The notes beneath the pieces were generated by a model that did not search any database, was not told the DNA's origin, and saw nothing but the letters and a program-made list of their open reading frames with translations. A DNA stretch of 64,000 nt, from assembly GCA_031375105.1 (NCBI GenBank), contig JANMHJ010000040.1, forward strand, positions 37,798 to 101,797, in the 5' to 3' direction. The stretch comes from Variovorax sp. GTDB lineage: Bacteria > Pseudomonadota > Gammaproteobacteria > Burkholderiales > Burkholderiaceae_C. The translations under genes and the position numbers were made by a program. The first letter of the stretch is position 1. Each line of letters starts with the position of its first letter. Below are positions 53,046 through 62,933 of this stretch, piece by piece.

Positions 53046-53116
53046 TGGAGTAGTTTGACCAGAAGCTAGACTTTGCCCTACAATTTGGGGATCAATTCTA
53101 GTTGAGGAGCCCCACC

Positions 53117-53443
53117 ATGCAAACTTTCAGCATCCGCGATCTGCGCGACCGCTCGGGTGAGCTTACGCATGAGGCCGAAGCGGGGCGCATGTCTTTGGTG
53201 ACCAAGCATGGGCAGCCGTTGTTTGTGACTTTGCCTTTTACCGAGGATTTGTTGCAGCATGGGGTGCGCAAAGCGCTGGCGATGTCATTGCTGCGTGCGG
53301 GTGATATTTCTATTGGCAAAGCTGCTGAAATTGCAGGCATGCCGTATTTGGATTTTTTGCCACTGGTGAAGGCCATGGGGATGTATGTGGTGGATTGCGA
53401 TCCTGCCGAATTGGCAAATGAGCTGAAATTATTGGGCGGCTGA
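53117..53443 (+). CDS. Type II antitoxin: Phd/YefM-like N-domain fused to UPF0175-family domain
   Basis: MQTFSIRDLRDRSGELTHEAEAGRMSLVTKHGQPLFVTLPF is Phd-like; …LLRAGDISIGKAAEIAGMPYLDFLPLVKAMG is UPF0175. ATG with GAGGAG RBS, and an ATGA overlap with the next gene. Confidence 0.65.
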   Translation: MQTFSIRDLRDRSGELTHEAEAGRMSLVTKHGQPLFVTLPFTEDLLQHGVRKALAMSLLRAGDISIGKAAEIAGMPYLDFLPLVKAMGMYVVDCDPAELANELKLLGG

Positions 53444-53949
53444 TGCAGACGCGCTTGGATATTTTGGTCTCAGACACGGGGCCATTGGTTGCGTTGGCAA
53501 AGTTGCATTTGCTGCTGCAATTGCATCGCGTTATTTCGCGTTTGTATTTGCCTAGGGCGGTGTTCGTTGAGGCCACGCAAGCTGGTAAACCGTGTGCCCA
53601 AGAATTGGCTCAGTTTGTTCAAGCGAACCCAGATTGGGTCATTTGCCAAACGGAGATTGAGCATGTGTTGATTGATGCGCTGTCTGGGCGCTTTGGCGCA
53701 GGCGAAGTGCAGGCGATGTATTGGGCAGGGGAGCTGAAAGTTGCGTTGTTGCTCGATGAGCGCAGAGCGCGAGCTGCTGCCAAAGAGCTGGGCTTGCAAG
53801 TGGTAGGCTTAGGAGCGGTTTTGCTCAGATGCAAACAGCTTGGCATCTTGCCGTTTGTGCTGCCCGCACTGAAGGAGCTGGAAAAAATGGAATATTTTCT
53901 ATCTCCTCAAGTGATCAAAGCAATCGCAGCGATGGCTGATGAACAATGA
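53443..53949 (+). CDS. DUF3368-family (PIN-like) toxin
   Basis: LVSDTGPLVALAKLHLLLQL… is PIN-like. Cognate partner of UPF0175 antitoxins. Confidence 0.65.
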   Translation: MQTRLDILVSDTGPLVALAKLHLLLQLHRVISRLYLPRAVFVEATQAGKPCAQELAQFVQANPDWVICQTEIEHVLIDALSGRFGAGEVQAMYWAGELKVALLLDERRARAAAKELGLQVVGLGAVLLRCKQLGILPFVLPALKELEKMEYFLSPQVIKAIAAMADEQ

Positions 53950-56852: not shown

Positions 56853-57620
56853 TCATCGCGTAAAGCCTGTCGCCGCGCGGCCACTGCCCTTGGTCACCAT
56901 TGGGGGCACTTCGATCATGCCCATCTCGTCTAAAAACACGCTGGAGCGCGCCTCTTCTGTGGGCCAAGCCTGATCCCAACGATCTGGTTTTGCTGTACTT
57001 GATTTTTTCTTGGGCACATTGGCTTCGCGCAACTCCAACCGTGTGGCCTGCCATTCCGATTCGGGATGCTGCATCGACATCATTTGAGAATGCTGCTCGG
57101 CGGCTTGCAATTCAGGCATCACCATCGCGCGGATGGTTTTCGTGTCAGGCAAATCGTCACTGGTGATTTGCCAAATAGGAATTTGCGCCATCTCCAGTGC
57201 TTTGAGCTTGCGTTGCGTGCCCTCGGATGCCTGTCGTCCCGGCTTACCCGATTGCAACTGAATCACGCCCAGCACATCCCCCTGCTCAGAGCAGATCAAG
57301 AAATCCACGCAGCGTCGCCCCACGCTGCCAAACCATTGGTTGTAGGAGCGGTTTTGCGTCACGCTCAAGAATCGCGCGAGTGCAATCTGCGGCATCAAAA
57401 GGCATTCTGGCAATGCACGGCGCAGCAACACCAACACGCGCAGCTCGGCAGGTGTGAGTGGGCGCATCGTGCGCGGCTGCCAGTCGTCTAAGCGAAATGG
57501 CCGAACCTTGCCGCTGTGCACCACAGGCGCAGAGCGCTGCCACAAAACCCAAGTGATTGCAGCCAACCCAAGCACCACCAAAGCCGCCAGGGGCCAAACC
57601 CAAGTTGAGAGCATATTCAT
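56853..57620 (-). CDS. DUF2726 (NERD/restriction-endonuclease-like fold) membrane-anchored protein
   Basis: N-terminal TM helix, then …LRVLVLLRRALPECLLMPQIALARFL…WFGSVGRRCVDFLICSEQGDVLGVIQL… matching the DUF2726 pattern. Start set at the ATG at 57618-57620. Confidence 0.6.
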   Translation of the reverse strand: MNMLSTWVWPLAALVVLGLAAITWVLWQRSAPVVHSGKVRPFRLDDWQPRTMRPLTPAELRVLVLLRRALPECLLMPQIALARFLSVTQNRSYNQWFGSVGRRCVDFLICSEQGDVLGVIQLQSGKPGRQASEGTQRKLKALEMAQIPIWQITSDDLPDTKTIRAMVMPELQAAEQHSQMMSMQHPESEWQATRLELREANVPKKKSSTAKPDRWDQAWPTEEARSSVFLDEMGMIEVPPMVTKGSGRAATGFTR

Positions 57621-57749
57621 AACACCCCATATAAGAAAGTTATTGCCAAGATGCCGCGCAGACACAATTGCCAGCTCGGCAGCGTTTGTTGCATTATGTG
57701 GCCGAGAATGCAAGCGCAGGCAAGCACACGTATGGAGTGTGACGGAGTG

Positions 57750-58973
57750 TTAACCCTTCACGCACACTACTTGCTTGAGCGTGTGCACCACGTCGACCAG
57801 ATCGCTTTGCGCCGCCATCACTGCGTCAATGTCCTTGTAGGCAGCAGGTGTCTCGTCAATCACGTCTTTGTCTTTGCGGCATTCCACGCCTTCTGTCGCA
57901 TTGCGGTGATCTGCCAGCGTGAAGCGGCGCTTGGCTTCGCCTCGGCTCATGATGCGCCCCGCGCCGTGTGAACACGATTCAAACGACTCCGGATTGCCTG
58001 TGCCGCGCACGATGTAGCTGCGCGCGCCCATGCTGCCGGGGATGATGCCCAACTGGCCTTTTTTTGCGCTCACTGCACCTTTGCGTGTGACGAATACGTC
58101 TTCCCCAAAATGCGTTTCCTTTTGCACATAGTTGTGGTGACAGTTCACCGCTTCGATATGCGATTGAAAACTCTTGTGGATCACAGTTTTCGCAGCATCA
58201 ATCACGCGGCGCATCATTACCTCGCGATTGGTGGCTGCAAACTTCTGCGCCCAGCCCACAGCGCGCACATAGTCGCCAAAATAACGTGCGCCTTCCTCGA
58301 AATAAGCCAGATCACGATCCGGCAGATTCGCGTTGTTGCGCAGCGCATCTTGCTTGGCCAGCTCGATAAACATCGTGCCGATGAAGTTACCCACACCGCG
58401 CGAGCCCGAATGCAGCATGAACCACACAAAGCCCGCTTCGTCTAGGCACACTTCAATGAAGTGATTGCCTGAGCCTAGCGTGCCCAAATGGTTGCGATGA
58501 TTCGTCTTGCCGATCTTCGGATAGTCTTTGCATAGCTCGGTGAATTCAGGCTCAAGTTGAGCCCAAGCCGTGTCCACCGAGCCCGGCACTTTATGCCAAG
58601 CCCCCGGATCACGCGTACCCGGCACTCGCCCATGCGGCACAGCGCGCTCAATCGCCGAGCGCAGCGGCGCCAGGTTGTCTGGCAAATCCTCCGCGCGCAG
58701 CGTCGTCTTCGCCGCCATCATGCCGCAGCCAATGTCAACACCGACAGCGGCGGGAATGATGGCTTTGATCGTCGGAATCACCGAGCCAATCGTCGCGCCA
58801 ATGCCGAAATGCACATCCGGCATCACCGCCACATGCTTAAACACAATTGGCAGCCGAGCCGCATTCGTCAGTTGACGACGCGCCTCATCCTCCACCGGCA
58901 CACCGCGCGTCCACATCTTAATAGGCACACCGCCGGGGGTTTGTTCTTCAATATAGTTAGTTTCCATGTCCAT
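57750..58973 (-). CDS. rtcB: RtcB-family RNA 3'-phosphate ligase
   Basis: RtcB motifs throughout (…MPDVHFGIGATIGSV…, …GSGNHFIE…, …HGAGR…). Start MDMETNY with AAGGAG RBS. Confidence 0.9.
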   Translation of the reverse strand: MDMETNYIEEQTPGGVPIKMWTRGVPVEDEARRQLTNAARLPIVFKHVAVMPDVHFGIGATIGSVIPTIKAIIPAAVGVDIGCGMMAAKTTLRAEDLPDNLAPLRSAIERAVPHGRVPGTRDPGAWHKVPGSVDTAWAQLEPEFTELCKDYPKIGKTNHRNHLGTLGSGNHFIEVCLDEAGFVWFMLHSGSRGVGNFIGTMFIELAKQDALRNNANLPDRDLAYFEEGARYFGDYVRAVGWAQKFAATNREVMMRRVIDAAKTVIHKSFQSHIEAVNCHHNYVQKETHFGEDVFVTRKGAVSAKKGQLGIIPGSMGARSYIVRGTGNPESFESCSHGAGRIMSRGEAKRRFTLADHRNATEGVECRKDKDVIDETPAAYKDIDAVMAAQSDLVDVVHTLKQVVCVKG

Positions 58974-59034
58974 GATTTTCTCCTTGAAACTTGGGGTGTG
59001 CTTTGCAGCACGCCCCAAGCCCTAATGATTGTGC

Positions 59035-60178
59035 TTAACGAAGCTTTACCAGCCCATTCAGCACCTGATCCAAACCTCCGAACACGGAGATCTTGTCGAT
59101 ACGCTCAGCCACGCGCTCCAGTGTCTCCAGCTCTTTCAGGCGCAGTGCGATGGGGTTGTCCTCCATCACCTTGGCCGTGTTGAGCAGAGAGCGAGTAGCA
59201 GCTGTTTCTTCGCGGCGGCGGATCACGTTGGCTTCAGCGGATTTACTCGCTTCCACCACCTGAGCGAAGATGGTTTTCATCTCGCCAGGCAGCACGATAT
59301 CTTTCACGCCCACGCTTTGGAGCTGTAGGCCTTGCGCGGAAAGCTTAGCGCGAACATGCCCGAGAACGACCTCGTCGATGACGGTTTTGTTCTCCAGCAG
59401 CTCGTCGAGCGTGCGCGTGCCAACGGCAGCGCGCAGGCCGAGCTGCAGCTCGCGATACAGATGCTCTGCTGGCTTGGCCAGTTGGGCAAATGCCTCACGC
59501 ACATCGGTGTAGCGCCACGTTGCAGACAGGTTCAGACGCAGGCCGACTTTATCGCGCGTCAGAATATCTTGCCCTGAAACTTCCAACGTTTGCAGACGCA
59601 AATCCACCAGCTCCACGGCCACTTGGCGGCCAAACTTCCAGAAAGCGTAAGCACCGGGTACGAGCAGCTTGTCAATCTTGCTGTCCACCGTGAGCACGCC
59701 CACGTTGTGTTCAGGCACTTGGCTCATGAGCAGGCCGGTGAGCCCCTGCACCGCGCGTTGGCGCAGTTGGGTTTGCGTCAGGCGCTGCGCGAGAGCAGCA
59801 GTGAGTTCAAAAGTCTCAACGATCTCCAGCACCTCGATGCGGACATCCACCAAGCCTTTCCAATACAGGCGGCGAGTAGCAGGCGCGAGGATTTCGACGA
59901 GGACGCCGTTTTCCACGCGCAGACCCACTTGCGTCTCCGTCAGTTCGACGCGCACGAACTCTTCAGCTACCACTTCAGGCTCTTTGGCCATGAGGTAGTC
60001 TGCCAAGCTGTGCGCGAAGGCGGTTTGGTCGATAGCAAAAGTATCGATGCGCAGCTTGTCAAAGCCCTCAAACAGCCAGTAGCGGCCAGGCTTCATGATG
60101 CGCTCGAAATCGCCATTGCGTAGCAAGATGCCGCGCTCGTTTTTCTTGATGGTCACACGTTTGAACATGTTGTTCTCC
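59035..60178 (-). CDS. SPFH/band-7 domain protein (cytoplasmic, no TM)
   Basis: MFKRVTIKKNERGILLRNGDFERIMKPGRYWLFEGFDKLRIDTF is SPFH-like, followed by a long coiled-coil C-terminus. AAGGAGA RBS 7 nt upstream of ATG 60178; 13-nt gap to rtcB. Confidence 0.7.
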
Positions 60179-60474
60179 TTATGAAATGTGTAAGAGTGAA
60201 TAAAGGTGCCGTTACAGGAGCTGCAGTGGATGATGAATGCCTGCCTGAAGGTGATGCCGTGCGCTTTAAGCGTTTGCGAAGTGCAATCAAGACATTCGCG
60301 CTGGCTCAAGCTGGCGGCTCACGCCCAGGCCGCGTGCCCATCACACGGGCCGCAGTCGCTGACAGCGTTTGATTGGGCTCTTTGAATCAGCAAGCTGATT
60401 CGTTGAACTGCATCTCGCGCTGCGTTCGGCGGGTGGTCTTGCGACCGTTTGGTTAGCTTGGCTTTTCAGACCAA

Positions 60475-60548
60475 AGTTTGGAACAGGAGTCGAACCTGCG
60501 ACAGACGATTTATCAGATCGTTGCTCTTACCAACTGAGCTATCCAGTG
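60475..60548 (-). pseudogene. Degenerate tRNA-Ile(GAT)-like gene (acceptor stem disrupted; no CCA)
   Basis: Canonical D-arm (TAGCTCAGTTGGTAAGAGC), anticodon arm (ACGAT-CTGATAA-ATCGT) and T-arm (GCAGG-TTCGACT-CCTGT). Only 4 of 7 acceptor pairs form (5' CACTGGA vs 3' TCCAAAC). The 5' end overlaps the CCA of the upstream minihelix by 2 nt. Confidence 0.4.
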
Positions 60549-60600
60549 GTGGTCATGGCGGGACTCGAACCCGCGCCTTACGGCACACCATGTCATGACC
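60547..60600 (-). other. tRNA-like minihelix (acceptor stem, T-arm and GNRA hairpin; no D or anticodon arm), CCA encoded
   Basis: GGTCATG-ACATGGTGT-GCC GTAA GGC-GCGGG TTCGAGT CCCGC-CATGACC-A-CCA. Perfect 7-bp acceptor stem, canonical T-arm, and a GTAA tetraloop hairpin in place of the anticodon arm. Confidence 0.3.
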
Positions 60601-60730
60601 CTATCTGAGCTTGAAACTGTGCGGCATACGTAGCACCGATCTTTCAAAAGAGATGCTGCGCACCGGCGGAGCGCGCTTTCGCGCCAACCCCTGACCTGTT
60701 AGCGTTCAGTTCTTCACAACAGATTCTTGT

Positions 60731-60759
60731 GCGGTTGAACTAGTGCTTAGTTCAACCGC
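60731..60759. terminator. Perfect 12-bp-stem hairpin at the 3' end of the array-embedded HNH gene (terminator or processing site)
   Basis: GCGGTTGAACTA-gtgct-TAGTTCAACCGC. The HNH stop codon lies in the loop. Followed on the + strand by GATCCTTTT. Confidence 0.4.
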
Positions 60760-61319
60760 GATCCTTTTGGCAGGCGAGCTGCCAGCCATTCATGCACGTC
60801 GGCGCGAATGTGTCGACCTGCGAGTAGGAAGTCTTCGAAGCGGTTGGGCACATAGGGTGCGTAGAGCAGCGGCATACCGGCTTCTTCCGGTGTGCGCGCT
60901 GCTTTGCGTCCGTTGCATGCGCCGCAAGCTGTGACCAGATTCATCCAGCTCCATGCGCCGCCGCGTGATGCGGGCAGGATGTGCTCGCACTGCAGATCAC
61001 GCTCATGAAACTGGTCGCCGCAGTAAGCGCAGGTGAATCGGTCACGCCGAAACAGCTTGTGTTTACTGAAGCCGGGTACGATGTCAAACAAATTGACCCG
61101 TGCCGAGCCATGTAGCGCGATGATGGGATAGACCTCCAGTACCGAGGGCTTGCCGCGCGGCACATTGAAGCCGCCACGCAGCACAGCAAGCGGGCTCGCG
61201 CCCTCGCACCAAGCCACAGAATCTGCAGCCACATGCGTTGCCGCTTGTTCAAGAGAAATCCAAGCCTGCGGCGTGCCTTGAATATCGAGTTGCAGCACAT
61301 GGCTGCGATGGGTTTGCAT
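60747..61319 (-). CDS. HNH endonuclease embedded in the tRNA array
   Basis: CAYCGDQFHERDLQCEHILPASRGGAWSWMNLVTACGACNGRK HNH motif. AAGGAG RBS. Located between the tRNA-His gene and the minihelix. Confidence 0.75.
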   Translation of the reverse strand: MQTHRSHVLQLDIQGTPQAWISLEQAATHVAADSVAWCEGASPLAVLRGGFNVPRGKPSVLEVYPIIALHGSARVNLFDIVPGFSKHKLFRRDRFTCAYCGDQFHERDLQCEHILPASRGGAWSWMNLVTACGACNGRKAARTPEEAGMPLLYAPYVPNRFEDFLLAGRHIRADVHEWLAARLPKGSRLN

Positions 61320-61351
61320 GGCTGACTCCTTTCTGGCATGCGGTTTTGATA

Positions 61352-61426
61352 TGGGTTGTTCAACCAGATTCGAACTGGTGTCTTCAGGGTCACATCCTGA
61401 AATGCTGCCGCTGCACCATGAACAAC
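61352..61426 (-). tRNA. tRNA-His (GTG), with G-1 and encoded CCA; non-host-like sequence
   Basis: G(-1)-TTGTTCA-TG-GTGC…; anticodon arm TCAGG-ATGTGAC-CCTGA; T-arm ACCAG-TTCGAAT-CTGGT; acceptor TGAACAA; C73; CCA. G-1:C73 is diagnostic for His. Confidence 0.65.
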
Positions 61427-61431
61427 ATATT

Positions 61432-61509
61432 TGGTATCTCGTGAAGGATTCGAACCCTCAACCCCCGACTTCGTAAGACGGTGCTCTGATTCCGTTGAGC
61501 TAACGAGAT
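61432..61509 (-). tRNA. tRNA-Arg (ACG), CCA encoded; A1-U72, AT-rich acceptor
   Basis: ATCTCGT-TA-GCTC…GAGC-A-CCGTC-TTACGAA-GTCGG-GGGTT-GAGGG-TTCGAAT-CCTTC-ACGAGAT-A-CCA. One T·T mismatch in the anticodon stem. Confidence 0.7.
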
Positions 61510-61518
61510 AAAAACTGA

Positions 61519-61591
61519 CGCCCCGAGAAAGTCTCGAACTTCCAACCTGCGGATTTCGAGGCCGCTGCTCTGCCAATTGAGCAATCGGGAC
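61519..61591 (-). tRNA. Class-I (short variable loop) tRNA with CGA (Ser-type) anticodon; no encoded CCA; identity uncertain
   Basis: GTCCCGA-TT-GCTC-AATTGGCA-GAGC-A-GCGGC-CTCGAAA-TCCGC-AGGTT-GGAAG-TTCGAGA-CTTTC-TCGGGGC-G. Full cloverleaf but a 5-nt variable loop, which is incompatible with canonical tRNA-Ser. Confidence 0.45.
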
Positions 61592-61595
61592 ATAT

Positions 61596-61671
61596 TGGCG
61601 TCTCTTATCGGAGTCGAACCGATGGCTTTCTCCTAGACAGGGAGACACTCTGGCCACTGAGTTAACGAGAC
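61596..61671 (-). tRNA. tRNA-Asp (GTC), CCA encoded; pyrimidine at position 37
   Basis: GTCTCGT-TA-ACTC-AGTGGCCA-GAGT-G-TCTCC-CTGTCTA-GGAGA-AAGCC-ATCGG-TTCGACT-CCGAT-AAGAGAC-G-CCA. One G·A acceptor mismatch. Confidence 0.6.
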
Positions 61672-61677
61672 GAAAAT

Positions 61678-61752
61678 TGGCAAACCGCAGGGGTATCGAT
61701 CCCCTCTCTACAGATTGAAAGTCTGCTGGCCACACCTGCTGCCTCGCGGTTC
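61678..61752 (-). tRNA. tRNA-Glu (TTC)-like, CCA encoded; unusual A54 T-loop (ATCGATA)
   Basis: GAACCGC…GCAGA-CTTTCAA-TCTGT-AGAG-AGGGG-ATCGATA-CCCCT-GCGGTTT-G-CCA. The acceptor pairs include a G1·U72 wobble. Confidence 0.5.
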
Positions 61753-61757
61753 ATAAA

Positions 61758-61835
61758 TGGTCTGGGTGGCTGGCTTCGATCCAGCGGCCTCCTGCTTCCA
61801 AAGCAGGCCGTCTACCTGACTGACATTACACCCAG
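61758..61835 (-). tRNA. tRNA-Pro (TGG)-like, CCA encoded; C1-G72, extra nucleotide at 8-9, A54 T-loop
   Basis: CTGGGTG-TAA-TGTC-AGTCAGGTA-GACG-G-CCTGC-TTTGGAA-GCAGG-AGGCC-GCTGG-ATCGAAG-CCAGC-CACCCAG-A-CCA. Confidence 0.5.
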
Positions 61836-61841
61836 AAAAAT

Positions 61842-61918
61842 TGGTGCCCCAGGGGAGATTCGAACTCCCAGAATCCTGTGTCTGAGACAGGCATGTATGC
61901 CGGTTCCATCACCGGGGC
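61842..61918 (-). tRNA. Class-I (short variable loop) tRNA with CAG (Leu-type) anticodon, A73, CCA encoded; identity uncertain
   Basis: GCCCCGG-TG-ATGG…ACAT-G-CCTGT-CTCAGAC-ACAGG-ATTCT-GGGAG-TTCGAAT-CTCCC-CTGGGGC-A-CCA. First gene of the array (promoter-proximal). Confidence 0.45.
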
Positions 61919-61936
61919 GTGAAGTGTTGTGATTTC

Positions 61937-62076
61937 ACTTCGGCTGTGTCCACACGCGAAGACCCGCACATGCGGATCAAACTGTTCGCTGCACAGGCAA
62001 GAGCGACTTGCATGCACATGCGCTGCATCGCAGTTTGCGAGAATTCGAGCAGCGTGGTGTGTGGGCACACCCGAAG
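61937..62076. ncRNA. Structured leader or putative ncRNA upstream of the tRNA array: about 22-bp inverted repeat arms flanking about 100 nt rich in internal palindromes
   Basis: CACTTCGGCTGTGTCCACAC (61937-61956) matches the reverse complement of GTGTGTGGGCACACCCGAAGTG (62055-62076). The interior holds GCGAAGACCCGCACATGCGG…, TGCATGCA and related palindromes. Confidence 0.3.
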
Positions 62077-62195
62077 TGAAACGGCGTTTGATCTAACGAT
62101 CAAAACAGCCGAACTTCTTTTCAACAAATTGTTAAAGAACAGTGACGCATTTGCACAATGCAAAGCTGCGCCCTCATGGCACGATGACCACGATG

Positions 62196-62239
62196 AAAAA
62201 AGACAACAAAAAAGCCCGATCTCGTTTCCAAGACCGGGC
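62196..62239 (-). terminator. Orphan Rho-independent terminator on the minus strand, upstream of the tRNA-array promoter region
   Basis: Minus strand reads GCCCGGTCTTGGAAACGAGATCGGGC followed by TTTTTTGTTGTCTTTTTT. No convincing minus-strand ORF lies upstream of it. Confidence 0.5.
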
Positions 62240-62537
62240 CTACAGAGGTAGGTGAAGACGGTACGTGAGTTACACGTGACCCTCGCCCGGTGGGGCTGAA
62301 TAATCCAATGCCTTCGGCTCAAAGCCTAGGCGCGAGCTATGCATGACATTCAGCCGCGCACAGCCACACCAAGCCTGAGCGGCTAAGCGTGTGGGGGATG
62401 CGATACGGTTAAACATATGAAGCTCTTGAAAAAATTAAAATGCAGAAAACTGCGATAGAACGTAATGTAAAGACTCTTTACTGGATCGTCAACATCTGCG
62501 ACAATTATTTTTTGATTTCGTTGCGAATTTTCAACAC

Positions 62538-62933
62538 ATGCAAGACTTTTCCGTCAACGCCACAGTTGTGCGCCGCACCAATCTCAATATGCTTTTGCAT
62601 GAGTTTGTGAAAACCCGCATCGCGCAAGGTGCAGCGCCCAAAGGCTTGGAGCAGGAGTTTGCGCAGCAAATACAAATCTCCCCCAGTATGCTCAGCCAAA
62701 TCAAAAGCTCACGCCCGATTGGTGACAAGCTCGCGCGGCAAATTGAGGTGCTCTGCGGCTTGGCGGCACATTGGCTGGATGAGACGCAAGCTGTGGCAGA
62801 AGATTTGCCCAATGAGGCGGAAGATCACATCGCGGATTTGGCGCGCCAAGCTTGGCGGCAATGCAATGCCGAACAGAAACGCGAGCTGCGCTTGCATTTG
62901 CGTGCCTTGGCGCAGCCAGAAAAGAAAGCCTAA
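62538..62933 (+). CDS. XRE/Cro-type helix-turn-helix DNA-binding protein
   Basis: …EFAQQIQISPSMLSQIKSSRPIGDKLARQIEVLCGLAAHWLDE… is an HTH_XRE-like motif. Preceded by an AT-rich promoter region. Confidence 0.55.
   Translation: MQDFSVNATVVRRTNLNMLLHEFVKTRIAQGAAPKGLEQEFAQQIQISPSMLSQIKSSRPIGDKLARQIEVLCGLAAHWLDETQAVAEDLPNEAEDHIADLARQAWRQCNAEQKRELRLHLRALAQPEKKA

Follow-up and report, generated by a model that had tools for sequence, protein, structure and literature searches.

A tRNA array, an HNH gene, a tRNA-like RNA, an SPFH gene and rtcB form a recurrent cassette in Variovorax and other Burkholderiales

In this study, we revisited a stretch of 64,000 nt from Variovorax sp. (assembly GCA_031375105.1, contig JANMHJ010000040.1, positions 37,798 to 101,797 of the forward strand; hereafter the window), in which seven tRNA genes, an HNH nuclease gene, a tRNA-like RNA, an SPFH/Band-7 gene and the RNA ligase gene rtcB lie co-oriented on the minus strand. 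That array, HNH gene, SPFH gene and rtcB are present and share one orientation had been noted in a first-pass annotation made from the letters of the sequence, and ARAGORN, Rfam and Pfam bear this out. We conclude with high confidence that these elements form a real, recurrent and transferable cassette with the composition and boundaries given here. The island extends from 57750 to 62933 (~5.2 kb), is accessory and is inserted between the gene for a HAD hydrolase and a DUF2726-AhpC-DsbD block. It is a fusion of two already described modules, a short tRNA-array unit and a Band-7/b7a-tRNA/RtcB system. We report its composition, its conserved order, its gain and loss as a unit, its RNA structures and its intact catalytic motifs; apparently new among its features are a covarying ~145-nt array RNA, a conserved leader open reading frame (ORF) with a terminator, a CCA-ended mini-tRNA, a ~580-nt structured spacer between the HNH and SPFH genes, and the hypervariable anticodon arm of a tRNA mimic.

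The first module consists of a helix-turn-helix (HTH) gene, a promoter with a palindrome as putative operator, the leader ORF, the terminator, the ~145-nt RNA, the seven tRNA genes and the HNH gene:

62538-62933, plus strand: divergent HTH-like protein, 131 aa, putative local repressor, with homologues upstream of arrays
62464-62492, minus strand: sigma-70-like promoter TTGACG-17-TACATT, from a promoter scan and a conserved block in the leader alignment (A2)
62467-62482, minus strand: palindrome AGTAAAGAGTCTTTAC, putative operator by its uniqueness and conservation, overlapping the promoter -10 box
62270-62416, minus strand: small leader ORF, 48 aa, conserved in position in A2 and called as a 48-aa gene in the related locus L081
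62196-62241, minus strand: intrinsic terminator behind the leader ORF (13-bp stem, then a T-run), possible attenuator
61932-62082, minus strand: ~145-nt structured non-coding RNA, a long closing stem and three hairpins in a four-way junction
61352-61918, minus strand: array of seven tRNA genes, Leu-CAG, Pro-UGG, Glu-UUC, Asp-GUC, 'Ser'-CGA, Arg-ACG and His-GUG
60747-61319, minus strand: array-associated HNH protein, 190 aa (Pfam HNH_5, E 1e-15; HNH)

The second module consists of a long structured RNA, which contains the CCA-ended mini-tRNA and the acceptor-less tRNA mimic, a soluble SPFH protein of the cage-forming type, and RtcB:

60605-60730 (approximate), minus strand: structured RNA domain A, a ~120-nt multibranch directly after the HNH stop codon
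60547-60600, minus strand: mini tRNA-like element with a 7-bp acceptor stem, a small hairpin, a T-arm and a 3' ACCA end
60476-60547, minus strand: b7a-type tRNA mimic with normal D, anticodon and T arms, an acceptor stem of 4-5 bp and no CCA; anticodon GAU
60185-60470 (approximate), minus strand: structured RNA domain D, the SPFH 5' leader, with a GNRA hairpin, an invariant CCGCCGAACG and two covarying hairpins
59035-60168, minus strand: soluble SPFH/Band-7 (slipin) protein, 377 aa, with three N-terminal beta modules (Pfam Band_7, E 8e-30)
57750-58973, minus strand: RtcB RNA ligase, 407 aa (Pfam RtcB, E 3e-127, profile positions 1-426 of 426)

Recurrence and mobility of the cassette

With the proteins and tRNAs of the window as queries, loci were mapped in 80 species-representative genomes, all of Burkholderiales, and in two metagenomic close relatives, 82 in all; upstream features were counted in the 67 loci with at least 3 kb of upstream sequence and downstream features in the 70 with enough sequence. 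The order that recurs is a divergent HTH gene, the tRNA array, the HNH gene, the tRNA-like RNA, the SPFH gene and rtcB. An HNH homologue of 67-94% identity lies between array and SPFH gene in 40 of the 67 loci, array tRNAs are present in 42 (median 5, maximum 20), and HTH gene, array and HNH gene are found together in 33. On the other side, RtcB is encoded downstream of SPFH in 56 of the 70 loci and directly adjacent to it in 29. Because of these counts the linkage of array, HNH, SPFH and RtcB is not due to chance, and the co-occurrence in other genomes that the first-pass annotation had named as a check is found, with the same order, in many of them. Cultured carriers include Caenimonas soli, Ramlibacter sp. 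WS9, Piscinibacter defluvii and Roseateles. Many related loci have a further gene between SPFH and rtcB, for instance one for a ClpP-like SDH-type serine protease (L002:9135-10097), which recalls SPFH-NfeD pairs, or, in Acidovorax, one for a 269-aa protein of no known kind (L047:9144-9953); the window has neither.

The cassette had also been called mobile, and this is reasonable: it occurs in varied contexts, its flanks occur without it in the related chromosome of L085, and its array-HNH half is found on a plasmid and on predicted viral contigs. The closest relative, L081, shares synteny with the window, whereas in L082 the cassette stands in an unrelated chromosomal context. The plasmid is the conjugative megaplasmid of Methylibium petroleiphilum PM1 (L083; NC_008826.1, 241163-255708), which carries a 27-tRNA array with an HNH gene; HD-domain and AlkB genes are embedded in this array, and the ~145-nt RNA (L083:2276-2411) follows a tRNA-Gly. 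Differing contexts, a cassette-free related chromosome and a conjugative plasmid all point to horizontal transfer. A compositional island was considered and rejected, as the GC content of the island (0.55-0.58) does not deviate from its surroundings. A phage origin is likewise unsupported: a search of 2.9 million viral contigs gave no SPFH relative, the ~145-nt RNA motif was not found in viral contigs, and the blastn matches to phages are of the generic tRNA kind only.

The tRNA array and the HNH protein

ARAGORN finds eight tRNA-type genes in the window, all on the minus strand and all within this region, namely the seven of the array, which are separated by spacers of 3-7 nt, and the mimic. 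Six of the seven array tRNAs score 50-55 bits with the Rfam tRNA model; the Glu-UUC gene fails this model and reaches only 33 bits, with the tRNA-Sec model. The first-pass annotation had described the array as non-canonical, which holds for three of its members but not for the other four. Leu-CAG is 77 nt long and has no long variable arm, though it keeps A73 and the CCA end. In Glu-UUC, the D-arm is unusual and the T-loop reads AUCGAUA; covariation of the anticodon stem between relatives indicates that this gene is under selection. 'Ser-CGA' (61517-61592) is a class-I tRNA whose nearest relative is the tRNA-Trp(CCA) of L081 (L081:8307-8382), and it is a tRNA-Trp derivative in which the anticodon has changed from CCA to CGA; as its encoded CCA end is lost, it is probably decaying. 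The Pro, Asp, Arg and His tRNAs look canonical and have an encoded CCA, and the His tRNA has G-1. That the array is not host-like, as had been stated, is at most hinted at by an identity of 64-86% between array tRNAs and the few housekeeping isoacceptors that the fetched loci contain.

The content of the array turns over rapidly, since L081 has 10 tRNAs, in a partly different set, where the window has 7, at an SPFH identity of 94%. Single-linkage clustering of array tRNAs at 80% merged several isoacceptor types. Across loci, the commonest array species are His-GUG (33), Glu-UUC (29), Asp-GUC (28) and Arg-ACG (27), all of which are present in the window. The targets of colicin E5 include His and Asp tRNAs, and colicin D targets Arg tRNAs; the common array species thus fit a replenishment or decoy role, which is compatibility and not proof. 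In its density (7 genes in 567 bp, against a threshold of at least two tRNA genes per kb) and in its associated HNH endonuclease gene the array resembles the known L-arrays. In size it falls short of the definition of Tran et al. 2016 (PMC4758250), which sets at least 20 tRNA genes: the window has seven and one mimic, and the arrays of its relatives have a median of 5, with 20 in L004 and 27 on the Methylibium plasmid.

The HNH protein combines a family-specific N-terminal half with an intact CxxC...H...N...CxxC core and has 1153 homologues. Members of the family are encoded on plasmids of Methylibium, Variovorax and Polaromonas, remoter relatives on those of Mycobacterium (36-43% identity) and of cyanobacteria (HNH core only), and some relatives lie beside tRNAs on predicted viral contigs.

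Promoter region and leader

The interval of 620 nt between HTH gene and array is homologous across loci. Homologues of the HTH-like protein, with 39-84% identity, are encoded divergently upstream of the array in 39 of the 67 loci, and a profile of this family weakly matches a phage CI repressor in the PDB (E 0.009) and Pfam HTH_3 (E about 0.02); its resemblance to CI and XRE repressors is weak. The palindrome AGTAAAGAGTCTTTAC is unique in the 64-kb window, where none is expected by chance, and occurs exactly once between HTH gene and array in 27 related loci.

In the leader alignment, the start of the small ORF, a Shine-Dalgarno-like AAGGA, the stop codon and a C-terminal ..PGxGxx-stop, with its CCGGGC nucleotide block, are conserved. 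A conserved leader peptide was considered and rejected; tblastn gives a match in L081 only, and just the position and the 3' nucleotide block are conserved. A strong terminator is predicted at 62241-62212 on the minus strand, and its sequence, GAGGCCCGG...CCGGGCCTTTTT, is near-invariant in 12 leaders. The terminator at 62196-62239 that had been taken for an orphan is therefore real, but it ends a conserved small leader ORF. The promoter scan predicts no sigma-70-like promoter between the terminator and the array, and the CCGGGC at the 3' end of the leader ORF is complementary to the 5' arm of the terminator, GCCCGG. In view of this complementarity, of the conservation of ORF and terminator and of the lack of a predicted downstream promoter, an attenuator in the leader is an attractive hypothesis: its translation might sense ribosome stalling, although the pairing columns are invariant and so give no covariation signal.

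Structured RNAs

The minimum-free-energy fold of the ~145-nt RNA has a z-score of -5.2 against shuffled sequences. With RNAalifold on 42 sequences, 13 of the 30 pairs show compensatory changes and 98.3% of cells are paired; this covariation was reached by none of 500 shuffles and by no slid control. A covariance model (R1) finds the RNA in 49 sources, with 70-158 bits in sense and 22-49 bits in antisense orientation, and eight of these sources, the Methylibium plasmid among them, lie outside the seed alignment. A search of Rfam 15 gave nothing at E <= 10. In most R1 loci the RNA lies 6-17 nt upstream of a tRNA, and in several it directly follows a tRNA-Gly, like a member of the array. In its closing stem a G-G opposition is invariant, and one position alternates between U-G and C-A.

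The whole spacer between the HNH and SPFH genes (60169-60746, minus strand, ~580 nt) is conserved, covarying and structured along its length. Domain A is conserved in 44 intergenic regions and has many compensatory pairs. The mini-tRNA gives sub-threshold Rfam matches, to mascRNA (30.3 bits) and to the tRNA-like domain of tmRNA; its fold, with a covarying acceptor stem and an NCCA end, is seen in most of the 34 loci folded, and it directly abuts the tRNA mimic. The mimic reaches 52.8 bits with the Rfam tRNA model at 60479-60545 (model positions 4-67); 39 loci have it 239-323 nt ahead of SPFH. In the window this 'tRNA-Ile' beside SPFH has an acceptor stem of only 4 bp and lacks CCA; with an acceptor stem of 4-5 bp and no CCA, the mimic cannot be aminoacylated. 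Domain D carries an invariant CUGUAA..CGGCACC ahead of the SPFH Shine-Dalgarno sequence. An identity of the tRNA-like region with YrlA/Y-RNA was rejected, as the model gives 30.2 bits against a gathering score of 69 and the match is to a T-arm followed by a D-arm.

The SPFH and RtcB proteins

Gene starts were re-set from sequence and homologues. The SPFH gene starts at the ATG at 60168. The start of rtcB is the ATG at 58973, behind an AAGGAG Shine-Dalgarno sequence, so that the gap between the two genes is 61 nt and not 13 nt as had been reported. RtcB has the motifs GSGNHF, HSGSRG, CHHNY and SHGAGR, all intact.

The SPFH protein has thousands of close relatives, the nearest named ones in Comamonadaceae and Sphaerotilaceae at about 80% identity. 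An AlphaFold2 model built with 57 diverse sequences (predicted local distance difference test, pLDDT, 86) contains three five-stranded beta modules, an SPFH core and long helices, and its best fold matches are stomatin and HflK/C. A membrane slipin or HflKC is not indicated, as beta strands open the model and a hydrophobic N-terminal helix is lacking; the scores with the NCBIfam models hflK and hflC also lie far below the cut-offs. It is a reasonable inference from the model that the protein forms a soluble oligomeric scaffold.

Relation to known systems

The first-pass annotation had stated that the SPFH protein has no described role in such a module. This was wrong, as a Band-7/b7a-tRNA/RtcB RNA-repair system was predicted in 2016 (Burroughs & Aravind, NAR 2016; as summarised in bioRxiv 10.1101/312249). 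In that summary the system is functionally analogous to Ro60/YrlA, with the protein and the RNA as ligation scaffold or cofactor, and it appears as a prediction without experimental validation. The cassette agrees with it in having an intact RtcB ligase, an adjoining and co-oriented Band-7/SPFH gene and, just upstream, a tRNA-like non-coding RNA gene. Unlike the system as summarised, the cassette adds a co-oriented, regulated tRNA array and an HNH gene upstream, and its 'tRNA' is part of a ~580-nt RNA with a CCA-ended mini-tRNA and has a hypervariable anticodon.

The closest experimental parallel is the TrcR regulon of Anabaena PCC 7120, which likewise combines a tRNA array, HNH, slipin/SPFH and RtcB (PMC8421152; PMC10272220). 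The 26-gene L-array of Anabaena is silent and is induced by translational stress, and 23 of its 26 tRNAs are aminoacylated; silence, stress induction and charging of array tRNAs have been shown for Anabaena only (PMC8421152). An HNH gene is conserved beside cyanobacterial arrays, and the Anabaena rtcB is co-regulated with the array (PMC8421152). Besides the array and rtcB, the repressor TrcR regulates two HNH genes and a slipin gene (PMC10272220), and induction by translational stress has been demonstrated for array, HNH and rtcB (PMC8421152, PMC10272220). Further likenesses are a repressor site over the -10 box (putative in the cassette), the spread of the array by horizontal transfer and the presence of some atypical tRNAs or pseudogenes. 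On the other hand, the Anabaena parts are scattered over plasmid and chromosome and linked by regulation only, whereas those of the cassette are contiguous; TrcR is a ribbon-helix-helix protein and the regulator of the cassette is HTH-like; similarity between the HNH proteins is confined to the HNH core (about 44% identity, covering 41% of the query); and the array has 26 genes in Anabaena against 7 in the window. Here, in dozens of Burkholderiales, they form one physical fusion behind a single predicted promoter. The cassette bears on what bacterial RtcB repairs and on why bacteria carry silent tRNA arrays, and, as a compact 5-kb unit open to deletion, transplantation and induction, it could provide a way to ask whether spare tRNAs and RNA ligation jointly counter translation damage. 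It could also offer access to the roles of the SPFH protein and the tRNA mimic, and to the question of whether the conserved structured RNAs are new functional RNAs.

About 87% of the G2 arrays of Mycobacterium come with an XRE regulator and an HNH gene (PMC5966550). These arrays resemble the cassette in having a regulator and an HNH gene, in their plasmid, phage and chromosomal sites and in an extra structured RNA inside the array. However, the HNH proteins are only 36-43% identical to that of the window, the structured RNA has about 430 nt instead of about 145 nt, and no SPFH-RtcB linkage has been reported for these arrays (PMC5966550). The Salmonella rsr-yrlBA-rtcBA operon likewise joins RtcB with a tRNA-mimicking non-coding RNA and a putative RNA-binding scaffold protein, and it is tied to tRNA damage, as proposed for the cassette. 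Unlike this operon, the cassette has no Ro60/TROVE, RtcA or RtcR genes (Pfam finds no TROVE domain in any of the scanned cassette proteins), and the YrlA model stays at 30 bits, with a gathering score of 69.

Proposed working and alternative explanations

The first-pass annotation had read the locus as a module for tRNA supply and repair. This reading is plausible and agrees with the Anabaena experiments (PMC8421152, PMC10272220), though it is largely anticipated in the literature and so not new, as Anabaena has the same parts, dispersed yet co-induced by translational stress. We consider it fairly probable that the cassette works as such a regulated unit, a scheme in which we infer the induction, the substrates, the scaffold role and the role of the HNH protein. 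According to this scheme, the unit would normally be repressed, and translation damage or stalling, caused by ribotoxins, anticodon nucleases or antibiotics, would relieve repression, leader termination or both. The array would then supply extra tRNA copies, as a replenishment of the pool or as a nuclease sink, while RtcB would reseal tRNA or rRNA breaks with 2',3'-cyclic-phosphate and 5'-OH ends. An SPFH oligomer together with the tRNA-like RNA may serve as scaffold or cofactor, and the HNH protein most likely promotes the spread and reshuffling of the array. In this way the cassette may protect against anticodon nucleases.

Several observations weigh against this scheme. In 19 of the 67 loci, those of the Acidovorax type, SPFH has no upstream array, HNH or HTH gene, and most of the mapped Acidovorax loci pair such an array-less SPFH with RtcB; conversely, the Methylibium plasmid has array and HNH gene without SPFH or RtcB. 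Because both modules also occur separately, the fusion of array and SPFH could be partly opportunistic. With three of the seven array tRNAs atypical or decayed, the supply capacity of the array is limited in the window. No anticodon nuclease was identified nearby, and a PADLOC scan gave only generic HNH similarity and no known defence system. The family assignment of the HTH-like regulator is tentative, as its CI and HTH_3 matches are weak (E about 0.01), and the regulation is analogous rather than homologous to that in Anabaena, since the regulator families differ.

The separability of the modules also favours an alternative that we regard as unlikely, namely that array, regulator and an HNH homing endonuclease form a self-spreading element, for which the SPFH-RtcB linkage reflects a homing site and not a function. 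As tRNA-like DNA is a target of such nucleases, the element would have come to lie next to the b7a tRNA-like gene. The fast turnover of the array between the window and L081 and the HNH relatives beside tRNAs on plasmids and predicted viral contigs are in line with this, as is T4 SegB, which cuts inside tRNA genes and makes the array next to them mobile (PMC8421152). Against it stand an order and orientation that recur unchanged in at least 33 species-level genomes, the one upstream promoter and putative operator common to both modules, with none predicted between them, and the HNH-SPFH spacer, which is conserved and structured over its whole length. In addition, the same gene set is co-regulated in Anabaena even though it is dispersed there.

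A second alternative, which we consider rather improbable, puts the mimic at the centre. With its variable anticodon arm it would be bait for a specific anticodon nuclease, be it a phage or competitor toxin or a resident one, and its cleavage, or its re-ligation by RtcB on the SPFH scaffold, would act as signal or sink, with the array tRNAs being secondary. The 39 mimic bodies form one cluster (links of at least 80% body identity) and yet have 17 different anticodons, and the variability is concentrated in the anticodon arm; even between the window and L081 the anticodon differs (GAU vs CAU) at 94% SPFH identity. In 18 of 24 loci the anticodon of the mimic is missing from the array of the same locus, and the mimic is not chargeable. 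In Salmonella, as summarised in PMC7790460, tRNA halves activate rtcBA via RtcR. However, the basis of this alternative is purely comparative, a cognate nuclease has not been identified, the anticodon variation could be drift at unconstrained positions, and the PADLOC scan gave no known defence components beyond the generic HNH similarity.

A more elaborate possibility, which we hold to be doubtful, is that the cassette encodes a vault-like ribonucleoprotein, in which a soluble SPFH cage similar to the major vault protein (MVP) binds the ~580-nt composite RNA and recruits RtcB. The composite RNA, with its CCA-ended mini-tRNA and its acceptor-less mimic, may then present the diversifying anticodon arm of the mimic as a programmable bait or sensor for anticodon nucleases; the ~145-nt four-way-junction RNA, processed from the array, may be a further component; and the leader-peptide attenuator may couple expression directly to ribosome stalling. 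With Foldseek, the SPFH model aligns with the major vault protein over 460-481 columns, compared with ~230-280 for other SPFH proteins. The model shares with the eukaryotic vault its beta-repeat modules, SPFH 'shoulder' and long helix, and, as with MVP and vault RNA, the gene adjoins small structured RNAs. Unlike MVP, however, the protein has three repeats instead of nine, and the analogy is only suggestive.

Finally, that an ordinary housekeeping tRNA operon or a prophage remnant lies beside rtcB by chance is hardly credible. Phages often carry tRNA clusters and HNH genes, and the GC content of the island equals that of its surroundings, but the comparative data largely refute this reading: the architecture recurs across genera, no phage genes lie within the island, the viral contigs gave neither an SPFH relative nor the ~145-nt RNA, the phage DNA matches are generic tRNA similarity, the array tRNAs are 64-86% identical to the few available housekeeping isoacceptors, and an otherwise syntenic relative is without the cassette.

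Chromosomal flank and cassette-free site

Downstream of rtcB lies a further gene on the same strand:

56853-57620, minus strand: DUF2726 membrane protein, a chromosomal neighbour outside the cassette (Pfam DUF2726, E 3e-10)

The first-pass annotation had counted this gene as part of the cassette, 29 nt from rtcB. With a start near 57620 (255 aa, identical to P0241), the gap is 129 nt, and the gene lies behind its own conserved upstream region. Although adjacent and co-oriented, it is absent from 81 of the 82 cassette loci, the exception being L081, which shares the chromosomal neighbourhood of the window. The DUF2726 subfamily comprises 106 proteins, and in L084, L085 and L086 the gene stands beside AhpC/TSA-DsbD, with no RtcB or SPFH nearby. 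We therefore rejected it as a cassette member, as synteny ties it to the chromosomal flank.

In L085, the order HAD-DUF2726-AhpC-DsbD corresponds to the flanks of the window without the cassette, and the DUF2726 upstream region aligns with that of the window. Just upstream of DUF2726 (L085:6848-7000), a short stretch resembles the 3' end of rtcB (compared with 57620-57800 of the window), and because this stretch remains, the site suggests a loss of the cassette and not a pristine empty site.

Further along the flank, ~3 kb from the cassette and just upstream of DsbD, a UPF0175/DUF3368 gene pair (53102-53949, plus strand) with a one-base overlap is toxin-antitoxin-like; such a pair is found at the same place in L086.

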